A DNA stretch of 64,000 nt from a virus (Duplodnaviria; Caudoviricetes): positions 96,001 through 160,000 of the IMG/VR virus record IMGVR_UViG_3300020048_000009. One strand, 5' to 3'. Within the stretch, counting starts at the first letter, position 1. The number at the start of each line of letters is the position of its first letter. The notes under the pieces are model-generated. The model saw nothing but the letters and a program-made list of their open reading frames with translations, was not told where the DNA came from and ran no database searches. The position numbers and the translations under genes are program-made. Positions 2,072-61,521 of the stretch are shown here, one piece after another.

Positions 2072-2770
2072 TTAATATGTATGAAAATTCTAGAATATTA
2101 GAACCTAATGAAGAAGTAAAGAAAGGTGATTTAATTCTATTAGTAGGTAAGAGTTGGATTATTGCAATAGATACACCAGTTAAATATTTAGCTAAAGATT
2201 TTATAGAAGTAAGAAGAAGGAAAGAAGAGGTTTAAAGATTATGGTAGTAGTTGATATTGAATGTTTATTACATGTGGTGACATTATCGGAATTGTCATTA
2301 GTTTGTCCTATTGTTATGGAAAAATTTAGGAGTAATGATAAGTATTTCCATATCGATCAATATGTCAGAGAGAATGGTGCAACTGTATGTATAGATTTAA
2401 ATGAATGGTGGAATGTTTTACCTGGGAAAGAGAAGGTAGATATTATAAGTACTTTCCATAGAGAATATAGACAGAGGCAAAAGGATTGTGAATATTCTGC
2501 GGATCAATTGTTTGAATATTGTTATGATATTAAAGACTAGGAGAATATAGATATGTTATCAGAAGAACAATTAGAAGCTTTAAAGGATTTAAGAGATGCA
2601 GGTATCATGGATCACGGTACGATTTCTGATTGTGGTGAAGCGTGCAACTGTCCTGCTTCTAATTTTATGTCTAAAGAAAGATGTGAATGTGGAGCAGATG
2701 AACATAATGAGCATCTTAATAGGGTTTATGATAATGTTCTGAAAATACTTACTGCTAAAGAAGTCTAGAT

Positions 2771-3073
2771 ATGAATAAGTTTAGTGTAGGTGATAAAGTT
2801 AAGGTTGTTCAATATGCAGGACGTGATTCTGAGAATCACCGCTATTTTAAAATTGGTAACGTCGGGATTGTTAGACAGGTAAATCTTCGTGGTGTCGGTG
2901 GATATCAGGATATGTTATTTGTTGATTTTAATGATCCTTCTAATACATATATATTCGGAAATGGTTGTTGGTATGTTTATAATGAAAATAGTTTAAGGTT
3001 GGATACTATTGAAATTGATATATCAACTTTAGATGAAGATGCTTTAATCCCTCAGGAATTATATGAAAAATAA
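2771..3073 (+). CDS. SH3/KOW-like hypothetical, DISTLDEDALIP family
   Basis: FSVGDKVKVV N-terminus, RYF.IG, W.VY.E.SL and C-terminal DISTLDEDALIP shared with 6991 and 7307. Confidence 0.8.
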   Translation: MNKFSVGDKVKVVQYAGRDSENHRYFKIGNVGIVRQVNLRGVGGYQDMLFVDFNDPSNTYIFGNGCWYVYNENSLRLDTIEIDISTLDEDALIPQELYEK

Positions 3074-41809: not shown

Positions 41810-42355
41810 ATGAAAAATGATAAGAAAACAATAGTTGTAAATCTCTACGGTGGACCGGGTTCTGGTAAGTCTACCCTTATGGCGAGTATATTTTCAGAAT
41901 TAAAGCTTAATGGAATTAATTGTGAGATGGCACCTGAATTTGCTAAAGAAAAGGTATGGGAAGGTTCGTTAGATATTTTAGCAAATCAACTTTATATTTT
42001 TGGAAAACAGCATCACACTATTTTTAGACTTTTGGGTAAAGTGGATGTAATTATAACGGATTCACCTATTATTCTATCTTTATACTACGGAAAGAATTGT
42101 AGTAATACATTTAAGAAATTAGTATTAGAGGAATATGCTAAATTAAATAATATTAATTTTTTTGTAGACAGAATTAAGAAGTATAATCCAAAGGGAAGAC
42201 TTCAAACAGAGTCTGAAGCAAAACAAATTGATAAAGAACTTTTATCAATTTTAAGTAAAAACAATATACATGCCGTTCATGTAGAAGGCGGACGAAAAAA
42301 CATTAAATGGATATCTAAAAGTATAATAGATATTATTAAAAAGGAAATAATATGA
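41810..42355 (+). CDS. NadR/Ttd14-type AAA (AAA_28-like) P-loop kinase
   Basis: NLYGGPGSGKST, PEFAKE, ITDSP; 4-nt overlap with thg1. Confidence 0.78.
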   Translation: MKNDKKTIVVNLYGGPGSGKSTLMASIFSELKLNGINCEMAPEFAKEKVWEGSLDILANQLYIFGKQHHTIFRLLGKVDVIITDSPIILSLYYGKNCSNTFKKLVLEEYAKLNNINFFVDRIKKYNPKGRLQTESEAKQIDKELLSILSKNNIHAVHVEGGRKNIKWISKSIIDIIKKEII

Positions 42356-43134
42356 ACAAGGATTCACTAGGCGATCGCATGAAAAATTTTGAGTCAGTAA
42401 CCGCAACAAAACTAATTAGTAGAATGCCCGTAATTTTACGGCTTGATGGTAAAGCATTCCACACATTTACCAAGGGTTTTGATAAACCTTTTGATACTCT
42501 ACTATCAGATACGATGATTGAAACTACACTTGAATTAGTTTCAACTATTCAAAACTGTCAAGTTGGATATGTTCAATCAGATGAAATTTCATTACTTCTT
42601 GTAGATGATAAGCACCTTAATACTTCTTCTTGGTTTGATAATAAGATTCAGAAGCAAGTATCGGTTGCGGCATCGATGTGTACTTTAACTTTTAATACTA
42701 TTTTTCTATCAAAAGTTATATCCCTATCAAAAGTAGAAGATATGACAGAAGAAATGTTTAAAAAAGTTGATATGTATAATGGTAAAATTTGTTCTGCGCT
42801 TTTTGATTGTAGAGCTTTTAATATTCCAAAAGAAGATGTATGTAACTATTTTATCTGGAGACAGCAAGATGCAACTAGAAATTCTATTCAATCTCTAGCA
42901 CAAGCTAATTTTAGTCCTAAACAACTACATGGCCTAAGTTGCAATAAGCTTCAGGATAAACTTTTCGCAGAAAAGCAAATTAATTGGAATGATATTTCTA
43001 CAACAAATAAAAGAGGAACATGTGCAGTAAGAAATTTTAAAAATGGACCTGCTTTTATTATTGATCGTGAAATTCCTATCTTTTCTCAAGATAGAACGTA
43101 TATCGAAAAGCTTGTTAATATTAGAGAGGATTAA
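42352..43134 (+). CDS. thg1: tRNA(His) guanylyltransferase/Thg1-like protein
   Basis: LGDRMK.FE, RLDGKAFHTFT, YVQSDEISL, FD.RAFN.P, YF.WRQ.DA.RNS. Confidence 0.93.
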   Translation: MNKDSLGDRMKNFESVTATKLISRMPVILRLDGKAFHTFTKGFDKPFDTLLSDTMIETTLELVSTIQNCQVGYVQSDEISLLLVDDKHLNTSSWFDNKIQKQVSVAASMCTLTFNTIFLSKVISLSKVEDMTEEMFKKVDMYNGKICSALFDCRAFNIPKEDVCNYFIWRQQDATRNSIQSLAQANFSPKQLHGLSCNKLQDKLFAEKQINWNDISTTNKRGTCAVRNFKNGPAFIIDREIPIFSQDRTYIEKLVNIRED

Positions 43135-43540
43135 TTATGTCTGATGGTGATTATGCTTTTCCATTTGACCCAGAATCAGAAAAACGTCGAATGAAACAAT
43201 TAGAAATTAATCAAAAATTTTTATTAGATGCAATTTTTGAAATTCATGATAATCTGTGTCCTAAACAATACGGAACATGGCAAGATAAAGTTAAACAATC
43301 AGTTGAAGCTTCTAAAAAATTAAAAAAGGATTAAAATGGACGCAAAATTAGAAATAACATATTTGGATGATAATACTGGACATGAAAGAACTATTACATT
43401 AAATACTATAACATGTTCAGAAGAATTTTATAATGATGTTAATGCGGTTTTAAAAGATAAACCTGTTACATGTAGATTAGCATTGCGATAATTTTATAAT
43501 TATTAATAAATAAAATAGAATATTCATAAGGAGAAAATAA

Positions 43541-43585
43541 ATGAATAACGATAAAGTTAAATGTTAGGTGCTTAAACCACCATAA
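43541..43585 (+). CDS. Leader mini-ORF with internal amber codon and Pro-Pro-stop end
   Basis: AAGGAG SD 43528-43533; ATG AAT AAC GAT AAA GTT AAA TGT TAG GTG CTT AAA CCA CCA TAA. Confidence 0.7.
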
Positions 43586-43646
43586 TCCTATTAGTGTTGA
43601 AAAATGACTGATTAATGTAAAAAACAAACAAACTAATAAGGATTAT
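43582..43646 (+). promoter_or_regulatory. Anti-SD/SD helix (putative translational attenuator)
   Basis: ATAATCCTATTAGT (43582-43595) is complementary to ACTAATAAGGATTAT (43632-43646; one bulge), which holds the AAGGA SD of ORF 43651. Confidence 0.65.
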
Positions 43647-43650
43647 AAAA

Positions 43651-43953
43651 ATGAGAAAAATAGACGAATTAAAGTTAAAGAATAAAGAAACAAGTAAACA
43701 ACTTAGAGAAAGAAATCTCAAGTTAAAAGAGAACCAGAAGCAAGGTAAATGTTGTAGTAATGAAATGTGTTCATTGTATTATGCTAGAAAAGAATATAGA
43801 CATTATCACATTGCCTATTGTGAGTTAAGAGGTAGAACTAGGGATCAGATTGAAAAACCTAGACGTGGTAATGAAGTAAACGAACAGCTTATTCAAAATA
43901 TTAAAAATGAATATGCATGGGAAATTCTCGATACTGGAGCAAACAATGAATAA
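43651..43953 (+). CDS. Hypothetical basic protein in the amber module
   Basis: Charged helical N-terminus; RHYHIAYCELRGRT..QIE.P; overlaps the Pth2-like start by 8 nt. Confidence 0.8.
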   Translation: MRKIDELKLKNKETSKQLRERNLKLKENQKQGKCCSNEMCSLYYARKEYRHYHIAYCELRGRTRDQIEKPRRGNEVNEQLIQNIKNEYAWEILDTGANNE

Positions 43954-44242
43954 ATTATATGTTTTAGTGAGAAAAGATTTATCTACATCTTATCAAGCGG
44001 TTCAAGCTGGTCATGCTGTGGCGGAATGGTTACTTCAAAACCATTAGGGTTCCGAATGGAAAAATAATACATTAATATATTTAGGTGTAAAAGATTTAGA
44101 TGATCTTAATCACTGGATGGAAAAACTTAAATATAAAAATATAGAATTTTCAGCATTTAAAGAACCTGATATTGGAAATGAAATAACAGCAATCGCATGT
44201 TTAAATGATGGTAAATTATTTTCCAGTCTTAGATTATTATAA
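43946..44242 (+). CDS. pth2: Pth2-like peptidyl-tRNA hydrolase with in-frame TAG at codon 34 (44045-44047)
   Basis: GGAG SD; KLYVLVRKDL...QAVQAGHAVAEW before the TAG and W.N.TLIYL...F.EPDIGNE.TAIA after it, same frame, ending TAA 44240-44242; missed by ORF track. Confidence 0.82.
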
Positions 44243-44245
44243 AAC

Positions 44246-44322
44246 GGCACTATAGCTCAGTGGTTAGAGCGGGAATCTCTAAAATTCTGTCCGCATGGGT
44301 TCGAATCCCATTAGAGCCGCCA
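44246..44322 (+). tRNA. Amber-suppressor tRNA (anticodon CUA)
   Basis: Acceptor GGCACTA/TAGAGCC (A:A at pair 4), D-arm GCTC/GAGC, anticodon arm GGAAT-CT CTA AA-ATTCT, T-arm ATGGG-TTCGAAT-CCCAT, G discriminator, encoded CCA. Confidence 0.9.
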
Positions 44323-44366
44323 AATTTATATAAGTTCCACTCCAGTGGAAAAAGTTAAACAAAAAG

Positions 44367-44400
44367 AAAAAGTTAAGGTATATTTTACCTTAACTTTTTT
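44367..44400 (+). terminator. Hairpin terminator after the tRNA, overlapping the next promoter (44378-44407)
   Basis: AAAAAGTTAAGGTA-TATTT-TACCTTAACTTTTTT. Confidence 0.75.
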
Positions 44401-51014: not shown

Positions 51015-52169
51015 ATGTTAAAATTACAAACATTACTTCAATCAATGCCCTTTGAAAAGGCAAAAGAAATACTTTCACTTCCGCCTTATAGTTTTAAGGT
51101 TCAAGAAAATGATCATTATGTTTTATTTGCATATAATCAAATTGAAACAGATATGTCTTTACCTGAAGCTATTGAAGCTCGTGGTATTATTTTTGAAAAA
51201 AATGCAGACTTTACACCTGTTTGTGTTCCGTTCTTTAAGTTCTGGAACTATGGTGAATCCAAAGCTTCTGTTTTAGACCATTCTTCTCTTTCTATTTATG
51301 AAAAAGTAGACGGTTCTCTTATTAAGATTTGGTGGTCAAATATTTATGATAAGTGGGTTATTTCTACAAATAATACACTAGATGCATATACTGCAGGTCT
51401 TGGTGATAATCCGCATTTTAATAATTTCGGTGAATTAGTAGAAGATATTTTAAAACAAAAGGGTATTATTAATTTCGAAACCGATGCTAATTTTAGCAAG
51501 GGTAATACCTATATGTTTGAATTAACTTCTATTTATAATAAAGTTGTTATTCGCCATGTTAAATCTGATTTAACATTTTTGGGTTATAGAGATAATTCAA
51601 CGCTTCAAGAATTTGAACCCTATGATATTTATCTTAATAACGAAATTGTTCTAAATAAAGTTAAGAAGTATCCCTTAATGTCTATAGATGATATTCTTAA
51701 GGCTTGTGAAATTATGCATGGTGAACAAGAAGGCTTTGTTCTTGTAGATAAAAACTTTAATAGAGTTAAAGTTAAGTCTCCTTTCTATGTTACATTACAT
51801 CACGCTAAAGATAATGGCCAATTTACTTCTGAAAAGGCTATTAGAATTATTCAAATAAATGAAGTAGATGAATTTTTAACATACTTCCCTGAATTTAAGC
51901 CTTTCTTTGATGAAATAATTGTTTTAGTAGATGATTATGTTTCAGATATGGCACAATGTTTATGTATTGTTTTAGATGGTGTTGAATTTTTATCTAGAAA
52001 AGATATTGCGTTACAACTTAAATCACATAAAGCAGCCTGGTATGGTTTTATGGTTTTAGATAAAATTCTTAAACATGAAGTATATCAAATGCCAAGAGAT
52101 TGTTTTGAAAAGATGGATTCATCCAGAGCAGCAAAGTTTATAGGAGAAAAGTCAATTAAAGTGGCTTAA
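51015..52169 (+). CDS. rnlA: RNA ligase 1 (T4 Rnl1-like)
   Basis: EARG..F, F.KFWN, YEKVDGSLI, YMFEL, EGFV, RVKVKS. Confidence 0.85.
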   Translation: MLKLQTLLQSMPFEKAKEILSLPPYSFKVQENDHYVLFAYNQIETDMSLPEAIEARGIIFEKNADFTPVCVPFFKFWNYGESKASVLDHSSLSIYEKVDGSLIKIWWSNIYDKWVISTNNTLDAYTAGLGDNPHFNNFGELVEDILKQKGIINFETDANFSKGNTYMFELTSIYNKVVIRHVKSDLTFLGYRDNSTLQEFEPYDIYLNNEIVLNKVKKYPLMSIDDILKACEIMHGEQEGFVLVDKNFNRVKVKSPFYVTLHHAKDNGQFTSEKAIRIIQINEVDEFLTYFPEFKPFFDEIIVLVDDYVSDMAQCLCIVLDGVEFLSRKDIALQLKSHKAAWYGFMVLDKILKHEVYQMPRDCFEKMDSSRAAKFIGEKSIKVA

Positions 52170-52171
52170 TT

Positions 52172-52855
52172 ATGGCAAAAGAATTATATATATGGGGCGA
52201 TCCACATTTAAATCATGATAATATTAGACGTTTTTGTGGGCGTCCCTTTCCTACGGTTAAGGAAATGAATGAAGCATTGATTAGCAATTATAATGAGGTT
52301 GTTAATCCTAAAGATGATGTTATAATTGTTGGTGATTTTGCTTGGAGTGATCATAACCATTTTCTAGCACAATTACATGGTAGAAAAACACTAATAATCG
52401 GTAATCATGACAAAATGCCAGAAGCGGTACTTAGAAACTTTACTCAAGTTATTGGAACACCGACAAAACCAGGTATTTTAGAAACATGTATTGCTGGACA
52501 AAAAATATCGTTTAGTCATTATCCATTATATTCATGGAATGCTTCATTTCATGGAAGTTGGAATATTCATGGTCATTGCCACGGAAGATTAACAGAATTT
52601 GATGATCTTCTAAGAACAGATGCGGGTGTAGATTTATATAATTTCTATCCTGTTAATTTTGAAGTTCTAAAATTAAAATTACAAAGTAGAGTTCCCGCTT
52701 GGAAGAAGAAAATGGAAGAAGTTCATCCAGAAGGTGATGAGACATCTTTATCTAAAAATAAAACAGAATCTTTAAAGTTTAAACAAATGTTTGAAGAACA
52801 AAAAGCTAAAAATACAAATCTACTTAAAGTAGACTATACATATAGAAAGGCTTAA
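52172..52855 (+). CDS. Calcineurin-like metallophosphoesterase
   Basis: DPH..H, GD, GNHD, HYP, HGH.H. Confidence 0.88.
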   Translation: MAKELYIWGDPHLNHDNIRRFCGRPFPTVKEMNEALISNYNEVVNPKDDVIIVGDFAWSDHNHFLAQLHGRKTLIIGNHDKMPEAVLRNFTQVIGTPTKPGILETCIAGQKISFSHYPLYSWNASFHGSWNIHGHCHGRLTEFDDLLRTDAGVDLYNFYPVNFEVLKLKLQSRVPAWKKKMEEVHPEGDETSLSKNKTESLKFKQMFEEQKAKNTNLLKVDYTYRKA

Positions 52856-54460
52856 AATGGACACACCGACATATTACGATAATGTATGTAATGAAGCATT
52901 AGATCTTCAAAAACAAATGAATTTAACAGACGTCCAAACCCTTCTTTATAATCATATTTGTAGGGGTGATTTCTATCTTAGGAATGAAGATGGCCAACAT
53001 TTTTATGATATTAATAATGAAGGTTTCGGTTATTTTGGTGAACGTGCTTGGGTTAAGAGACAATTTAGTAAACTTGTAAATGCGGGTTTAGTAAAATTTG
53101 AGTCTTTAAGAGATTGCAGGTCAAAACAATGTACTTCTTGGGTTTGGTATTTACCTAAATTTAATTATAACGATTTGGTTGATGCTTGTTGCTATGTTAC
53201 TACACATAATTTAGCAATGATCAAAGACCGTTTCAATCTCCCAGATGGATTTTCTAAAGTTGGTAAATATGGAGATTTAGAATTAATTAAGAACAATGAA
53301 GGTTATACTTTTAAGTATAAAGGCGAAGAAAGTATATATTCTTGGGATTATGATGGTAAAGGTATAAAAGAAGATTTGACGGATATAACAGGACAACCAA
53401 CATGGGAATCCGCTCAATATTATGATTCATTTTCTGAGATGTCGCATGATATTATATCGTTCATGGTTAATGACGGGTATAAATTAAAAAATGTTAAGGG
53501 ATATACACAAAAACGGAGGTTTAAAATCTAAAATGAGTAATGTAATTAAAATTCGAGTTGAAACATCACAAATAGTGGAAACATGTAAACAAGCGGTTGA
53601 AAAACTTGCTATTTATAAAGCTAAAAAATATGAAGAATTGCTTTTAGCTATGGTTAGACCAGTAGAATATAGTTTTTTTGGTTTAATAAAAACACAAAGC
53701 GCTGTTGATAGAGAAAAAGCTATTGAAATTATTAAAAATTGTGAATTTTATGACTATTATGAGCGTTATGCTGGAAAGGCAACCCAAATTTATTACGAAT
53801 ATAGAAGTCAATATGAAGGTCTTAAAGAATTAATGTTAAAATTAATTCCATATGCTCCTGATAGTACTGAAGGCTCAATGCTTTTGCCGCTTGATGCATG
53901 GAATGAAATTTGTAATATTTCATTGATGAAAGTATAACCATGAAAACATTAGATAAATATGCATTTAAAAATGCTACATGCGTTACAATGCAAACGTTGA
54001 TTGGTGTTTCTACTAGAAGGTTTCCAGTAGATCACGGTAATTGTTTTTCTATTAAATGTGATAATAATATACAGTATAAAATTGTTAATTTTGTATTAGA
54101 AAATTTAGAAAGATTGGTAGAAAAAAAGATTATAAATTGGCCTATTAGAATTCTTCCAATTTCAGAAAGACACGCAGTAATTATAGATGAAAGAATTCCT
54201 GAAAAGTGGTATAGTAAAAAATATTGTGAAGTTTGCTGTCCGTTTGATTTATTACCTCATAATCAAAAAATGTCATATGTTAGAAAATTATTGACTAAAG
54301 AAATTGAAGAAATTGAATGTCAAGATGGTTCTATTATAGTAAAAAGAGAATTTAAAACGCCGCCACAAAGAACATTAAAACCAGGATGGACTGTACAACA
54401 AGAAACTGATAGTGGTATTATATACTGTGATAGTATTCCGGTAAATTTAAAAAAGAAAAT

Positions 54461-54772
54461 ATGAGAATTAATAAAATTATATGTATACTTTTAGCTTTTT
54501 CTTTTATATGTGGATGTGCCACATATTTTGAAAGAAGTGAGTATCCTAGATATAACCAGTATTATCCTGCAACTAAAAGGGATTATGAAGTATTATCTAC
54601 TGTAACACATGATATTATTTATGGAACAGGATCTCCTCACAATGTAGGGGGTGAAATAGGTGTTCTTTTGTCTCCGATAATAATTCCATGTTTTTTAATA
54701 GATTTACCTATTTCTATAACATTTGATACGTTGTTTTTCCCTCTTGATTATTTCGATAAAAACTCAAACTAA
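54461..54772 (+). CDS. YceK/YidQ-like lipoprotein
   Basis: Lipobox ICG-C; YYPAT..D...IDLPIS.TFDT.FFP. Confidence 0.68.
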   Translation: MRINKIICILLAFSFICGCATYFERSEYPRYNQYYPATKRDYEVLSTVTHDIIYGTGSPHNVGGEIGVLLSPIIIPCFLIDLPISITFDTLFFPLDYFDKNSN

Positions 54773-55372
54773 AATATAAAACGTTGGTATATTTTAACCT
54801 CTATGTTATGTATAGTATTATACATAACATTTCGTATTTATAAGGAGCAATTATATGGGTTACATGGGATTAGAGAATTATATGGCATCTGATGAAGCAT
54901 CAGATTTTGTTTGTACTGTTCTTGGAAGCATTGAAAAAGACTGCGAAAAACAACTTAAAAATAAAGCCAATGAGTATAATACTCCAGGATATGTTAATAT
55001 TGCTCTATTTGCTGAAGCATTTTTAAAGAATATTTCAATCTATTCAGATGATAAGCTATATAAGATTTTAGAGCAAGTAAAAAACAAGCTTGATGAACAA
55101 GTAAAAGCTATTAAGAAAATGGAATATTGGAAAGACCAACAAATGCATATTACAGCATTTAAACGGATGTCCAAAAATATTAAGAAAATTTTAGAAAATG
55201 CCTATTAAAAGGGCGTGTTATGATAGTAAGCGATTTAATAGAACTATTAAAAAGTATGCCGCCAGATAAACACGTTAAAATATGTGCAGGCTATACTTTT
55301 TTGTTACAGGGTGTAACATGTTCTGACGATGATGATTATGTTGAATTATATTAATTAAATAAAGGAATAAAA

Positions 55373-56374
55373 ATGAACGATAACAAACTTAATTCAATCG
55401 GTTTCTATACAATGTATGATGAGCGCGTCAGTAAAGTTTCAGCGACTTCACAAATGAAGCGTTGTGAACTTATTATTACAGAATATTGTAATTTCAAGTG
55501 TCCTTATTGCCGTGGTCTTGCTGATTATATCTATGGTAATAGAAAGATCAAGCAATTGACATTTAAGGAAATTTGTTATATCATCGATCAGTGGTGTAAG
55601 CTTGAGCCTTTGGAGAGTATCAGATTTTCTGGTGGAGAACCTACTCTTCATCCCGATATTGTAGATGTTATCAAATATGCGAAGGCAAAAGGTATTAAGA
55701 ATATCGCAATTTCTACAAATGGATCTTCTCCTCAGGAATTATATGATCAGCTGTTAGAAGCAGGTGTTAATGACTGCTCAATTTCATTAGATGCTTGTTG
55801 TGCAGAAGATGGCGATCATATGGCTGGTGATAAGAAGGGTGCTTGGGATATTTTAACAAAAAACATTGCATATATCGCTAAGAAATGTTATGTTACTGTT
55901 GGTGTAGTTTTAACTCCTGAAAATGTTGATAAAACTATTGATACTGTTAGATTTGCTCATACATTAGGTGTTGCCGATATTCGTATTATCAGTGCTGCTC
56001 AGTGGAATCAGCCAATTCCTAGACTTAATGAAATTGAACAGGAAATTTTAGAAGCACACCCAATTCTAAAATATCGTGTTGGACATTTCGCAAATGGTGT
56101 TAATGTTAGAGGTATTTCTGATACTGATAGCAAGAGATGCTCACTTGGTTACGACGACGCAATCGTAGCGGGTGAATATGCGTTCCCATGCATTATCTAT
56201 ATGCGGGAAGGTGGTAAACCTATCTGTAAGGTGGGAGATGATATGCGTGAACGTAAGATAGAATGGTTAAAGACACATAACACACATCTTGACCCTATTT
56301 GTAAAAAGAATTGCCTGGACGTGTGCGTTTCGTACAACTGCAAATACAGAGAAATTCATGGAGAACAAGCTTAA
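55373..56374 (+). CDS. Radical SAM protein
   Basis: CNFKCPYC, FSGGEPTLH, STNG, SISLD; C-terminal Cys cluster. Confidence 0.9.
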   Translation: MNDNKLNSIGFYTMYDERVSKVSATSQMKRCELIITEYCNFKCPYCRGLADYIYGNRKIKQLTFKEICYIIDQWCKLEPLESIRFSGGEPTLHPDIVDVIKYAKAKGIKNIAISTNGSSPQELYDQLLEAGVNDCSISLDACCAEDGDHMAGDKKGAWDILTKNIAYIAKKCYVTVGVVLTPENVDKTIDTVRFAHTLGVADIRIISAAQWNQPIPRLNEIEQEILEAHPILKYRVGHFANGVNVRGISDTDSKRCSLGYDDAIVAGEYAFPCIIYMREGGKPICKVGDDMRERKIEWLKTHNTHLDPICKKNCLDVCVSYNCKYREIHGEQA

Positions 56375-56646
56375 CATAGAAAGATTTCCAGCATTCGAAT
56401 TTACCTTTGATAAATGGAGTGCCGGAAGTTTATATAACCTTGGCATAGATGGACATAAACATCTAATGTTTAGATATGCCATGCGTTATATTAGACAATA
56501 TGCAATTGGTTATTGTCATGTTGAGTATATTCAAGTTCGACCGAAGCTTGATTGCGTAGCTGTTATGTTTTTCAAAGACGAAGTACAATTTTGGACACAT
56601 TTAACTTTTTCCGAGTTTAGAAGAATATTCCCGGAAGTTCCTAACG

Positions 56647-57057
56647 ATGAAATTTATGAATAAGAATTTAAATAATATAGAATTTTTAAGAAAATTAGCA
56701 TTTACTGATTTATTAACTAAATGCTATAATAGAAATTGGTTAAAGTATTGTTATGACAGTACTCTTAATGCTTCTACTTATTATTTATTCATAGATATTA
56801 AGAATTTAAGGGGTATTAATAATGATTCCGGGTATTTACATGGTGATACCACGTTAAAAAATACAGGAATATATTTAAAAAAATTCGGAGATGTTGTTCG
56901 TCTTGGTGGTGATGAATTTCTTGTTATCTGTAAAAATGAAGATATATATTTAAAGGCTTTATCCTATAAGTATAAGAAATTTCATATTACAGGTGTTAAG
57001 AGTTGTAGTCCTATAACTCGAATAATCGAAAAATTAGATAAGAAGTTAAAAAAGTAA
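56647..57057 (+). CDS. Stand-alone GGDEF (diguanylate cyclase-like) protein
   Basis: TDLLT.CYNR, FIDI, GD..LK, VVRLGGDEFLVI. Confidence 0.85.
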   Translation: MKFMNKNLNNIEFLRKLAFTDLLTKCYNRNWLKYCYDSTLNASTYYLFIDIKNLRGINNDSGYLHGDTTLKNTGIYLKKFGDVVRLGGDEFLVICKNEDIYLKALSYKYKKFHITGVKSCSPITRIIEKLDKKLKK

Positions 57058-57058
57058 G

Positions 57059-57088
57059 GTATATTTTAATGATGATATTACTTATAAT
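57059..57088 (+). promoter_or_regulatory. Putative promoter GTATAT-N18-TATAAT
   Basis: Variant motif upstream of ORF 57120. Confidence 0.65.
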
Positions 57089-57586
57089 ATCATCATTAAG
57101 TATTTATTAAGGAGAACATATGTTAATGATTATTGGTTGGTATTTTATTGGTTTAATTGGAATAACGTCATTTTTATGGCTTTTAGACGAATTACCGTCT
57201 TTAAACCAAATTATGGTAAAAGATATACTTACGGTATGTTTTTTTAGTTCATTTGGACTATTCGTATTTGCAGGTCATATATTATATTTTATTATATTTT
57301 TAGTTATTACTATTCAACCGATTTTAAATACAAAAATTGTTGATATTTTTAAAAGAAAGACAAAATAATATGAAAATTAAAACAATATATGATATTAAAC
57401 CATTATGGTTGAGAAGAGTTTGTGTGATATTTTTAGGTGTTCCATGCCTTATATTTATAATGTTTGGTACAGCCTGTTGTGAATGCTGTTCAGGTGTTAG
57501 GCAATTTATTAAAATATGGAAAAATGAAGTTTAAAATATAAAACAAGAATTAATGACTTATGCAACACTAACGGAGGTAAATTAAC

Positions 57587-58765
57587 ATGAGAAATCTAGC
57601 ATCTATACAGACAGTTGATAAAATTATTGAAATTCCTAAAGCGAATACTATTGAATTAGTTACATTTAAAAATGTGGCTTGGCAATGTGTCGCTAAAAAA
57701 GGTGAATTTGTACCTGGTGGTTTATGCGTTTATTTTGAAATCGATTCTCTTTTACCCAAAGAAAATACAGCTTTTGCTTTCATGGAAGCTCGTAAATTCA
57801 GAGTTAAAACCGTAAAATTCATGACTGAATATTTATCACAGGGTCTTGCGTTACCTATTTCAGCTTTTCCCGAGCTTGATATTGAAAAAATGGCAGATGG
57901 TTTAGACGTTACAGAAGTATTAAAAATCACCAAGTATGAAAATGATGCAGGTGATGATGAAGAAGCTGTAGAAGAAATGTCTAAAAATAGAAAGAAATAT
58001 GGAAAATTTAGAAATCTATTAATGAAGTATAAAATTGGTAGATTTATTGTTCGTACCTTTATCGGTAATAAACCTACTGGTAATTTTCCTACACACCTTT
58101 GTGCCAAAACCGATGAAACACGTATTCAAAATCTAGTTTCTTTATTTGAAAAGGCGAAGGGTATTGAATTCATTATATCTGAAAAATTAGAAGGTCAATC
58201 TGGTACATATATTCTACAAAAAGGTAAATTCTTTAGAAAAAATACCTTTTATGTATGTAGTAGAAATAATTGCTATCCGACAAAGATTCCTAATAACTTC
58301 TGGTATATTGCAGATAAGTATAAAATCCAAGAAATACTTGAAAGTCTTATGAGAAGTTTTAAGGATGCAACACATATAACACTACAAGGCGAAATTGTAG
58401 GACCAAAAGTTCAGAAAAATATCTATAAATTAGAAGATCTAGAGTTTTATGCGTTCAATATAGTTGTAACCTTTAAAAATGGCGATGTTACAGCTTTTAA
58501 CCCTAAATTTATAAAAGCCTTACTAGAAATAGTATATGAACATACAGTAAAGGCGGAAAATAAAATTACACATTGTCCTATTTTAGGTACATGTATCTTA
58601 GGTGTCACACCTGGATATAGAACAGTTGAAGAAATTTTACAATCTGCTGAAGGATGTTCAACTCTTTTCAATACACATAGAGAAGGATTAGTTCTTAGAA
58701 ACATGGGAATGCATTATTCTTTCAAAGCCGTATCAAATGCATATCTATTAAAACGCGGCTACTAA
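57587..58765 (+). CDS. RNA ligase, DRB0094-like family
   Basis: MR.LASIQ, CVYFEIDS, KTDETRIQN, EKLEGQS, QGE..GP..QKN.Y, REG.V, SFKA.SN.YLL. Confidence 0.88.
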   Translation: MRNLASIQTVDKIIEIPKANTIELVTFKNVAWQCVAKKGEFVPGGLCVYFEIDSLLPKENTAFAFMEARKFRVKTVKFMTEYLSQGLALPISAFPELDIEKMADGLDVTEVLKITKYENDAGDDEEAVEEMSKNRKKYGKFRNLLMKYKIGRFIVRTFIGNKPTGNFPTHLCAKTDETRIQNLVSLFEKAKGIEFIISEKLEGQSGTYILQKGKFFRKNTFYVCSRNNCYPTKIPNNFWYIADKYKIQEILESLMRSFKDATHITLQGEIVGPKVQKNIYKLEDLEFYAFNIVVTFKNGDVTAFNPKFIKALLEIVYEHTVKAENKITHCPILGTCILGVTPGYRTVEEILQSAEGCSTLFNTHREGLVLRNMGMHYSFKAVSNAYLLKRGY

Positions 58766-60330
58766 AATTGTATCTGTAGCAGATACAATATGGAGCAAAT
58801 ATGATAGATAAACATATATATATTGAAGGTTGGAGAGATTGGCCAAAAGAATCTTTTGGTGGATGGGCGCCTGGAAATTATGAGTATTCTATTATTTGTA
58901 GAAAATGTAATGGTAGTTACGTTGGAAGCAAATATTCATACCATTGTTATCCATGCGCATTGAAACAATATGAAGAAGATATTCAAAAGAATTTAGGAAG
59001 CGGAATATGAAAATTAATATTAATAATAGATGTAAAGTTATTCTTACAGAAAATGCTCTTGAATCATTATGTTTTAGTAAAGATGAAATTAAAAGACTTA
59101 ATAAAGATACAAGAGAATATACCGATGAATTATGGTCTTTAATGAACACTTTTGGTGAATATTTTAAAGCAGCTGGCGATAACCAAATATTTGAAAATAA
59201 TGAAATAGAAATTATAGAAGGTACATAATGAGGGCTAAGTTATATTTAGTTCCAGATAATGCATTTTAAGGAGTGGTAAAAATTATGAAAATTAAAATAA
59301 GAGATTATGGCCAAAATGGAAAAGAAATTTCTATTAAAGTAAAAAATAATGGAAAAACTTCTACTAAAAAGTTTTATTATACTCCCTCACAATTTGGTTC
59401 ATCGGAAAGTTTTGAGGCTAAATCTAATACAAAGACTCCTATTTTTGTATTACTTAATATGTTATTAGAAGATATTGGACAAAAAGATGCATTACAAGTA
59501 TCCAAAGAACAAATTAAAGCCAAAAAAGAAGCAGAAAAGGCTCGTGAACATAGAATTAATGAAACAGTAAAAGCATTTAAAGCTATGTGTAAAAAAGAAT
59601 TGAAAGATAGAAAAGCCAAAGGTTTATGTAATGCAATATTATATCATGGACCAGGACATCAATCTAAAACATTTTGTGAATGCAAAGGTCCACATAAAAA
59701 ACATAAATGTAATTTTGGTAGATATGATGAAACAGAAGAATGGACAGGAATGAAGGGATATGCAGGGTATTAATATGAACCTAAATAAAGGACAATATGA
59801 ATAAATTATCAAATTATCATTTTGGTGCCGTAAGAAAAGTTCCAAAATGTAATGAAAATAGAATAGTTATAAGTACCTATTATCCATTATGTTTAGGTGA
59901 AGATTATACACATATATATAATCCACCTGATGATTATTTGTGTATGCATCCTACAGATTGGAATATGGTATTTTGTGAGAAATGTTTAGCCCTTAAAAAA
60001 CAACAAGAGGAAGTAAAATGAAATTTAATGATATAAATGTTGGACAAGTTTTTATAACAAATTTATTACCAGTAGATATTGCGAATAAATGCGGGGTAAT
60101 TTGTATAGAAAAACAACAAACACCCAATAAGCTCATTATGAAAAGAATGAATTCAGATGAACAATGGATGATTTTTGCAGATAAGACCACTGATGAATGT
60201 AATATGGGAAATTGGATTAAAAAAGATTAATATAGCAAAGATGCATTAATTGGTGTATAGATGTTGAAATATTGTATAATGTATTTATACAAATGGATAT
60301 ACCATTTATCATATCAGAGGAATATAAAAA

Positions 60331-61521
60331 ATGAAAACAGTAATTGGAAAGTATAATGAAGCAAAAATTTTTGCAACAACAGTTGAAGCTTCATGTGAAC
60401 AGCAAATTTTAGATTTATGTAATGAGTCTTGGGCGCAGGATTGTAATATCCGTATTATGCCTGATTGCCATTCTGGAAAGGGATGTGTAATCGGTACTAC
60501 TATGACAATCAAAGATAAGATCGTACCCAATTTGGTAGGCGTAGATATTGGCTGCGGTATGCTTACTACTAAGTTCAGAGCATTAAAGCTTGATTTAAAG
60601 CAAGTTGATAGAACAATTAAGCAGGAAATTCCTATGGGTAGAAATATTCATAACGAAGCTCTTGTTGATTTTTCGCCTGAATTGAATAAGCTTTGGGCCG
60701 TTAAAAAGGAAATAGGTTTTGATAAGGTTTCTAGAAGTCTTGGTTCTTTGGGTGGTGGAAATCACTTCATTGAAATCGGAAAAGACGAAGATGATTGTTA
60801 TTATCTAGTTATCCATAGCGGTTCAAGAAACTTTGGTAAGAAGGTAGCTGAATACTATCAGGGTAAAGCTGTTGATTATCATAAACTTCTTACAGGTGAT
60901 GCTAGAAAGGCTTTTATTGAACAATTAAAGTCAGAAGGTCGTCAAGATGAAATTAAAGATGCTTTAATTAAATATAATGAGCAGTATAATACTGATTTGT
61001 GTTATTTAGAGGGCGCATTATTTAATTCATATTTAAACGATATGAAAATTGCTCAGAAGTTTGCTTCTTTAAACAGATATACTATCGCTAATATTTTATG
61101 TAAGGCTTTTCAGGTTGGACCAATAGAACAATTTGAAACAGTTCATAACTATATTGATACTGATAATATGATTCTAAGAAAAGGCGCAATTTCAGCTCAA
61201 AAGGATGAAAAGTGTTTAATCCCTATTAATATGAGAGATGGTTCTTTATTATGTGTCGGTAAGGGTAATGTTGATTTTAACTATTCTGCTCCTCATGGTG
61301 CAGGACGTTTAATGTCACGTACTAAGGCTAGACACGAGTTATCATTAGATGAGTTTAAGGATACAATGTCTAATGTATATTCATCTACTGTTGGAATGTC
61401 AACACTTGATGAAGCGCCTATGGCATATAAGCCAATAGCAGAAATCTTAGAAAATATTAAAGATACTGTTGATGTTATAACACAGATTAAACCTATTTAT
61501 AACGTTAAAGCAGAAGAGTAA
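60331..61521 (+). CDS. rtcB: RtcB RNA 3'-phosphate/5'-OH ligase
   Basis: MPD.H.G.G..IG, VGVDIGCG, LGGGNHF, HSGSR, HNY, HGAGR, DEAP.AYK. Confidence 0.95.
   Translation: MKTVIGKYNEAKIFATTVEASCEQQILDLCNESWAQDCNIRIMPDCHSGKGCVIGTTMTIKDKIVPNLVGVDIGCGMLTTKFRALKLDLKQVDRTIKQEIPMGRNIHNEALVDFSPELNKLWAVKKEIGFDKVSRSLGSLGGGNHFIEIGKDEDDCYYLVIHSGSRNFGKKVAEYYQGKAVDYHKLLTGDARKAFIEQLKSEGRQDEIKDALIKYNEQYNTDLCYLEGALFNSYLNDMKIAQKFASLNRYTIANILCKAFQVGPIEQFETVHNYIDTDNMILRKGAISAQKDEKCLIPINMRDGSLLCVGKGNVDFNYSAPHGAGRLMSRTKARHELSLDEFKDTMSNVYSSTVGMSTLDEAPMAYKPIAEILENIKDTVDVITQIKPIYNVKAEE

Follow-up and report, generated by a model that had tools for sequence, protein, structure and literature searches.

A phage leader peptide with an in-frame amber codon, encoded together with a suppressor tRNA, is a likely translational attenuator

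Leader-peptide attenuators are textbook devices, and engineers have built amber switches with unnatural amino acids. In the ermC, cat and cmlA systems a short leader ORF has its own Shine-Dalgarno sequence (SD), a hairpin sequesters the downstream SD, and a ribosome held at a defined position of the leader melts the 5' arm of the hairpin and opens that SD. Leaders of the trp, his and pheA type report on one aminoacyl-tRNA through the position of the ribosome relative to alternative RNA helices; the ribosome stalls when that tRNA is missing, and what is controlled is transcription termination. In prfB, the gene for RF2, an early in-frame stop gauges termination efficiency for a translation-factor gene by way of a +1 frameshift within the coding sequence. 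In tnaC the regulatory state is a ribosome lingering at a stop after a C-terminal Pro. Synthetic leader switches have also been described in which a TAG placed in a leader peptide makes downstream expression dependent on tRNA(CUA) (PMC6412442, section 6). On the phage side, the code-change modules of recoded phages group a suppressor tRNA with translation-related genes, and stop decoding has been proposed to act there as a timing device (Borges et al., bioRxiv 10.1101/2021.08.26.457843). PTH2 genes in jumbo phages and orphan CUA tRNAs are on record as separate observations (PMC7824862, PMC5852040), and targets of the amber-suppressor tRNAs of standard-code jumbo phages were not found earlier, for example in XacN1 (PMC5852040). 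To our knowledge no natural leader-peptide attenuator responds to the reading of a stop codon by a suppressor tRNA that a virus encodes, and in the full-text literature that we searched we found no description of a natural amber-sensing leader.

The locus described here shares something with each of these systems. It lies in a stretch of 64,000 nucleotides (the window) that corresponds to bases 96001-160000 of a 211,678-base IMG/VR virus record, which is linear, has a G+C content of 29.8%, is 84% complete by CheckV and carries phage-type genes. The operon runs in the order leader, 100-aa gene, PTH2-like gene with an in-frame TAG, tRNA(CUA) and terminator (Table 1). The leader is a mini-ORF (43541-43585) reading MNNDKVKC-TAG-VLKPP-TAA, with eight sense codons ahead of the sensor TAG (43565-43567) and a G as the next base. 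The codons of the extension are GTG CTT AAA CCA CCA, with the Pro-Pro pair at 43577-43582 and the closing TAA at 43583-43585. A sequence-only reading had claimed this leader, with a strong AAGGAG SD, together with a 14-bp helix of one bulge and three GC pairs over the SD of the 100-aa gene. The first claim held with its coordinates exact in the sequence; the second held except that the 3' arm was one base off, which is immaterial. These sequence features are shown, and translation of the leader is inferred from them.

Table 1. Features of the amber leader and its cassette, in window coordinates
Feature	Position	Strand	Basis or remark
Second promoter candidate	43465-43492		
Weak sigma-70-like promoter candidate (TTTATA, 17 nt, TAGAAT)	43493-43521	+	9/12 matches
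Leader SD, AAGGAG	43528-43533	+	Read from sequence; 7 nt ahead of leader ATG
Leader part 1, MNNDKVKC then sensor TAG	43541-43567	+	Sequence
Read-through extension, VLKPP + TAA	43568-43585	+	Sequence; conservation of Lys-Pro-Pro-stop in relatives
Helix 5' arm (anti-SD arm)	43582-43595	+	Overlaps last Pro base and TAA
Hairpin loop, 36 nt	43596-43631	+	Fold
Helix 3' arm	43632-43646	+	Contains SD AAGGA of 100-aa gene, 43638-43642
100-aa gene, first under the proposed switch	43651-43953	+	ORF
PTH2-like gene, 98 codons	43946-44242	+	Start overlaps end of 100-aa gene by 8 nt
tRNA, anticodon CUA (amber suppressor)	44246-44322	+	3 nt past PTH2-like stop
Intrinsic-terminator-like hairpin with T-run, closes unit	44366-44400	+	Terminator search

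Taken by itself the mini-ORF of the window is statistically unremarkable. The pattern of an ATG, at most nine codons, a TAG and a peptide ending in PP-stop occurs once in the 211.7-kb genome and 0-3 times in shuffled genomes, and the significance of the leader lies in its position and in its conservation in relatives. The promoter is likewise weakly marked: the match level of the sigma-70-like candidate is not above that of shuffles, so its role is inference only, and clearer TTGACA...TATATT promoters stand directly upstream of the leaders in two relatives (L004 and L006). Further upstream, a gene for a Thg1-like 3'-5' polymerase (Pfam, 3.9e-29) lies at 42352-43134, 1.1 kb upstream of tRNA(CUA).

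Pattern scans of IMG/VR, JGI metagenomes and GTDB genomes yielded about 120 related loci on giant-phage and metagenome contigs, from which we obtained 80 unique upstream regions of 100-aa homologues on very divergent phage contigs. All of the first 11 distinct IMG/VR loci (11/11) have an SD-preceded mini-ORF with a TAG after 1-7 codons and an in-frame Pro-Pro, and in every one of these upstream regions a hairpin lies over the main SD or ATG. Under strict criteria (an ATG start, an SD no shorter than 4 nt and a TAG within 9 codons) the leader is present in 44/66 regions against 0.06 in dinucleotide shuffles, and under relaxed criteria (a start, TAG within 12 codons, in-frame PP after it) in 73/80 against 0.88 in shuffles. 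These comparative statistics rule out a chance origin of the pattern. The loci are phylogenetically related, and the counts are not independent events. Conservation of the leader is in this sense shown, and the geometry of an ermC/cat-type attenuator with an amber codon as sensor, which had been an inference from the letters of one locus, is supported by the 73/80 relatives, with no experiment behind it.

The details of the leaders are also conserved. Most homologous leaders are preceded by an SD of 4-6 nt. One TAG is found in 34 loci, two in 36 and three in 3. A purine directly follows the TAG in 107/115 cases, a context that in classical work favours amber suppression, and Thr stands just ahead of it in 61/115. 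In 47/73 leaders the PP is followed directly by TAA or TGA, and in 10 single-TAG relatives CC.CC.TAA is invariant with the third base of both Pro codons free to vary. This pattern of invariance is consistent with selection on a translated Pro-Pro; possibly CCNCC is kept in part as a (weak) alternative anti-SD instead. In most loci the final PP-stop lies between 6 nt inside and 8 nt before the anti-SD core, and the last TAG lies 15-30 nt upstream of that core. Three classes can be distinguished. Single-TAG leaders, to which that of the window belongs, read Mx-TAG-xxxKPP-stop, and double-TAG leaders read Mx-TAG-...KP[D/F]T-TAG-...KPP-stop. In the third class R-[G/S/A]-P-P is itself the CCUCC anti-SD, and some of its members continue into the main start. 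The leaders of L004, L043, L081 and L087 span the whole hairpin into the main start.

Seven of the 80 regions fail the relaxed test, and five of these are recognisable variants. The leaders of L067, L083 and L084 end in RGSP, and that of L040 is frameshifted. L059 has no separate mini-ORF within the 200 nt upstream of the 100-aa gene; there the TAG stop of the upstream gene stands as the sensor, and its in-frame continuation puts a RAPP motif on the anti-SD. In L082 the leader reads MYPSGFT-TAA-AVRGSP-TAA (L082:1317-1359), with TAA in place of TAG as the internal stop, and ARAGORN assigns the anticodon UUA to the tRNA of this module (1963-2030). The contig ends within this gene, and its anticodon loop can also be read as UUU, so that covariation of sensor codon and anticodon remains no more than a possibility for this truncated tRNA. 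L060, which also fails, lacks the leader as well as the PTH2-like gene and the tRNA(CUA), and the same three elements are absent from the distant homologues L124-L126 on candidate-phylum MAG contigs, two of them labelled Absconditabacterales. All three elements are present on L123, a 427-kb contig binned as an archaeon (Thermoplasmatota MAG), which is probably a mis-binned giant phage.

The second part of the proposed element is the helix that hides the SD of the 100-aa gene. It has 14 bp with one bulged A (43638) and 3 G-C pairs, and RNAfold predicts it in the MFE structure as well as in the centroid. The folding energy of the region is -20.3 kcal/mol (z = -2.95), and 0/200 shuffles fold as well. 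The MFE fold also contains a 4-bp mini-helix GGUG/CACC at 43567-43581, immediately 3' of the UAG. A close variant of the phage from an independent lake metagenome carries two 1-nt indels in the hairpin loop (43599 and 43619), and its leader and both helix arms are unchanged. Because a start codon, and not a U-run, comes after the 3' arm of the helix, an intrinsic terminator or transcription attenuator at this site is ruled out.

A referee may ask whether the helix itself is conserved, since RNAalifold, run on 10 single-TAG leaders aligned with MAFFT, found no consensus pairs or helix. This outcome is explained by the helix arms sitting in different registers, and the case for structural conservation therefore rests on a comparison of cognate and non-cognate arms, in which the post-TAG segment of each locus was paired with its own SD region or with those of other loci. 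Cognate pairing had a mean energy of -17.35 kcal/mol versus -11.02 for non-cognate pairing, and 0/2000 permutations were as low. Conservation of structure is shown by this test: the helix is kept as a structure through sequence turnover and not as a sequence.

We modelled the effect of a ribosome on the leader with a partition function in which covered bases are forced to be unpaired, assuming a textbook footprint that extends from 15 nt before to 12 nt after the first base of the A site and, for the Pro-Pro state, Pro-Pro in the ribosomal E/P sites. Over 71 loci, the main SD is unpaired with a mean probability of 0.11 in free RNA; a ribosome at the last TAG leaves this at 0.11, and one at Pro-Pro raises it to 0.58. 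The corresponding medians are 0.007, 0.006 and 0.63, and the window alone gives 0.25, 0.25 and 0.81. The sequence-only reading had held that a ribosome stopping at the TAG ends just short of the helix and that one reading through to Pro-Pro-TAA frees the SD, and the modelling supports this (0.25 versus 0.81 in the window). Thermodynamic switch behaviour is thereby shown, in the sense of a calculation. The helix of the window is a weak one by the same model, with only 3 G-C pairs and an SD already 25% unpaired in free RNA. Disruption of the helix by a ribosome at Pro-Pro is a prediction of the model; that a ribosome arrests there is inferred from what is known of Pro-Pro and Pro-stop, without a toeprint.

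The strongest support for the reading had not been used in the sequence-only account, namely the tRNA(CUA) at the end of the operon and the next gene, which needs TAG read-through. The PTH2-like gene has a TAG at codon 34 (44045-44047), and its frame is open only with read-through. It matches Pfam PTH2 (PF01981) with E = 2e-5 and 25.2 bits against a curated cut-off of 23; a search of the genome repeats the match, with 1 TAG inside. A family profile of the PTH2-like proteins matches the solved Pth2 chains 24bt_A (E = 5.6e-4) and 2zv3_A, and residues Q, H, E, D and T are invariant in the phage family, which we have not mapped onto the published catalytic residues. By profile the downstream gene thus probably belongs to the PTH2 family; hydrolase activity is inferred from homology only. 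The gene is found in 63/67 loci, and in 43/46 unique loci with enough flank. One in-frame stop interrupts 26/63 of the homologues. Throughout a large clade that includes the window it falls in the same variable surface-loop region after the AVAEW helix. In L001 and L005 an in-frame stop stands at codon 4-5 of the PTH2-like gene and resembles a fused leader.

The tRNA(CUA) has its CCA encoded and an A:A mismatch in the acceptor stem; its production and charging are inferred, and we have no data on charging. An Rfam search of the window found nothing but tRNA. Terminator sites numbered 2 (one hairpin, both strands) versus 0.2 expected in shuffles. Among unique relatives with enough flank, 42/46 carry the tRNA(CUA), which usually begins 4-20 nt past the PTH2-like gene, and the homologues that are without both the tRNA and the PTH2-like gene (L060, L124, L125 and L126) are also without the leader. 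Co-occurrence of the leader with the tRNA(CUA) and the PTH2-like gene is thus shown. By inference from sequence, both proteins are probably TAG-gated in nearly every module, whether by the leader, by translational coupling or by internal TAGs. Two further observations concern the surroundings of such cassettes. A phage tmRNA gene (tag ANAPMA[L/I]AA) lies directly downstream of the cassette in L030 (1535-1894) and in L033 (2425-2831), and in L033 no tRNA(CUA) was detected between the cassette and the tmRNA. In Yersinia phage fHe-Yen9-04, no annotated cassette was found in the neighbourhood of the tRNA-Sup-CTA.

The product of the 100-aa gene remains without an assignment. Its family shares the motif FRHxHIAYCELRGRTRxQIE, and AlphaFold2 predicts a long helical hairpin with a short conserved C-terminal element (mean pLDDT 88.8). 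No Pfam or PHROG family matched the protein, and tblastn against 50,697 GenBank phage records gave no match. Foldseek found no significant match to the fold in PDB or AlphaFold DB clusters, and the ESM Atlas nothing usable; the best matches are generic helical hairpins such as the arm of seryl-tRNA synthetase, at E > 0.4. A complex prediction for the 100-aa homologue of L002 with the PTH2-like protein scored 0.01, which is evidence neither for nor against binding. There is no TAG in the alignment of the 100-aa family, nor in the copy of the window.

An amber sensor presupposes that TAG is ordinarily a stop in this genome. Among 287 ORFs the stop codons are TAA in 238, TAG in 25 and TGA in 24, TAG-ending ORFs usually have a back-up stop a few codons on, and coding coverage is about equal under the standard and the TAG-sense code. 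Because TAG ends 25/287 ORFs, it is normally a stop, and the genome uses the standard code and is not recoded. Measured against a stop-codon-recoded phage (code 15), the genome has the suppressor tRNA but does not meet the criterion of many in-frame TAGs and TAG avoidance. No release-factor gene or domain was found in the record, which is 84% complete. Beyond the window, at genome positions 83394-93081, 24 tRNA genes form a block, and the CUA tRNA stands apart from it inside the cassette. Two TAG-ending ORFs, at window positions 2241-2774 and genome positions 68789-69373, have in-frame continuations of 75 and 61 codons, and may conceivably be further targets of suppressor read-through. Elsewhere in the window (51015-61521) there is an RNA-repair cluster that comprises three proteins of the RNA-ligase type, one of them RtcB (PHROG E = 2.9e-137), and, in their midst, a radical-SAM gene; this cluster suggests a conflict with host defences that cut tRNA.

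We propose that the element is probably a translational attenuator operated by the ribosome, with the reading of an amber codon as its input. The leader would be translated from its own SD. Where RF1 wins at the UAG, the ribosome would come off some 15 nt before the helix, and the 100-aa gene would keep its SD paired and be off. Where the phage tRNA(CUA) decodes the UAG, the ribosome would advance five codons and linger at Lys-Pro-Pro-UAA; formation of a Pro-Pro peptide bond is known to be slow, as is termination after Pro. The lingering ribosome would cover the whole 5' arm and leave the SD free for a second ribosome. The PTH2-like gene would follow by translational coupling and would need a second read-through at codon 34. 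The two proteins would therefore be made steeply in proportion to amber-suppression capacity, which would depend on the competition between charged tRNA(CUA) and RF1. The Pro-Pro stall and the regulatory outcome are inferred, without support from expression measurements, toeprints or reporters. Contigs assembled from one metatranscriptome and from two runs that are probably of DNA covered only fragments and were uninformative on expression.

Of the rival explanations, the one that survives best holds that the element mainly gauges RF1 activity, through its depletion or inactivation during infection, and not how much phage tRNA is supplied. UAG read-through reports the ratio of tRNA to RF1, so that regulation could act on either of the two. 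In favour of this rival, the tRNA lies in the transcription unit of the leader, so that its supply is perhaps roughly constant per transcript, and no release-factor gene was found in the record; prfB is a precedent for a stop codon as a release-factor sensor. Against it, the leader tightly co-occurs with tRNA(CUA) and is missing where the tRNA is missing, the possible TAA/UUA pairing of L082 points to the tRNA as the partner, and the record is only 84% complete. We regard an RF1 gauge as unlikely.

Considerably less support remains for a second rival, that TAG is always sense when these genes are expressed and that the leader is an ordinary coupling device or an EF-P/proline-dependent element. 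Pro-Pro is conserved as well as the TAG, and the leaders that run into the main start (L004, L043, L081 and L087) look like plain translational coupling. This is contrasted by the standard code of the genome, with 25/287 ORFs ending in TAG, by the concentration of TAG at 1-3 per leader of 10-25 codons with none in the 100-aa family alignment, and by its conserved early position in a purine context; we consider the rival very unlikely. A third, still more remote, in which ATG-x-TAG is a minigene like lambda bar and the PTH2-like enzyme is tied to peptidyl-tRNA drop-off and not to suppression, can draw on the many leaders with only 1-2 codons before the TAG (often Thr), on the peptidyl-tRNA-hydrolase-like gene that comes next and on the known link between bar minigenes and Pth in lambda, but it gives no role to the in-frame Pro-Pro-stop after the TAG or to its anti-SD placement, does not fit the 8 codons ahead of the TAG in the window and leaves the link to tRNA(CUA) unexplained.

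If the element is the amber-sensing attenuator that we prefer, its purpose can only be guessed at. Our preferred guess, of low confidence, is a feed-forward supply, while stops are being overridden, of a rescue or recycling function based on peptidyl-tRNA hydrolase and tied to the level of read-through; the homology to PTH2 and the tmRNA beside two related cassettes hint at this. The circuit could equally well exert negative feedback on the suppressor, or positive feedback (for example through an RF1 antagonist) that gives a switch. A bolder reading, also no more than possible, is a self-contained, switch-like controller of the genetic code, in which two proteins are made only when the suppressor tRNA is active and in turn influence termination or the suppressor itself; the pair might consist of a peptidyl-tRNA hydrolase and an antagonist or adaptor of RF1. 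Were this controller reading true, the phage could flip bistably to a UAG-read-through state or hold read-through at a set level as a homeostat, and the response would be steeply non-linear owing to the 2-3 TAGs of some leaders and the further TAG of the PTH2-like gene. A function would then be at hand for the 'orphan' amber-suppressor tRNAs that standard-code jumbo phages carry, and the module could plausibly represent an intermediate step on the way to full TAG recoding.

Short of that reading, the element looks like a natural sensor of genetic-code override. The cassette supplies concrete and conserved targets for the suppressor tRNAs of standard-code jumbo phages, links these tRNAs to a PTH2-like enzyme and peptidyl-tRNA recycling, and bears on how stop-codon recoding begins in phages. 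The leader is also a compact, portable part with which amber suppression could be measured or controlled in vivo.

Set against the known systems, the phage element meets two criteria of the ermC/cat type, a leader with its own ribosome-binding site and an SD-sequestering helix, and would share with ermC, cat and cmlA the opening of the SD by a ribosome held on the leader. It does not meet the criterion of antibiotic-induced arrest with a resistance gene. Unlike those leaders it has no antibiotic or other small-molecule inducer, the genes it would regulate are not resistance genes, its stall motif would be Pro-Pro(-stop), and the stall site would be reached only after decoding of an in-frame UAG. 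Like the trp, his and pheA leaders it would report on one aminoacyl-tRNA by ribosome position, with the logic altered: a missing tRNA would lead to termination by RF1, its presence would turn the genes on, and the output would be translation initiation. With prfB it shares the early in-frame stop, and prfB is without a separate leader, an SD-hiding hairpin or a suppressor tRNA. The criterion of a prfB-type frameshift is not met, as Pro-Pro-stop follows the TAG in the zero frame in 73/80 loci and the cognate tRNA(CUA) is encoded alongside. The pause proposed at Pro-Pro-UAA resembles that of tnaC, which, unlike the phage element, senses free tryptophan, controls Rho-dependent transcription termination and works without an amber codon.

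The code-change modules of Borges et al. are similar in grouping a phage suppressor tRNA with translation-related genes. They are written in the standard code, carry an aminoacyl-tRNA synthetase or a release factor and serve genomes full of in-frame stops, whereas the present cassette sits in a standard-code genome with no release-factor gene found, and the TAGs lie inside the module itself. The synthetic amber leaders were engineered on tna and trp leaders and act on transcription; the phage element, by comparison, is natural, would act on translation and is encoded with its own tRNA. Nature thus appears to have built an amber switch of its own and to have tuned it repeatedly, with one to three TAGs, a purine after the TAG and a Pro-Pro brake.
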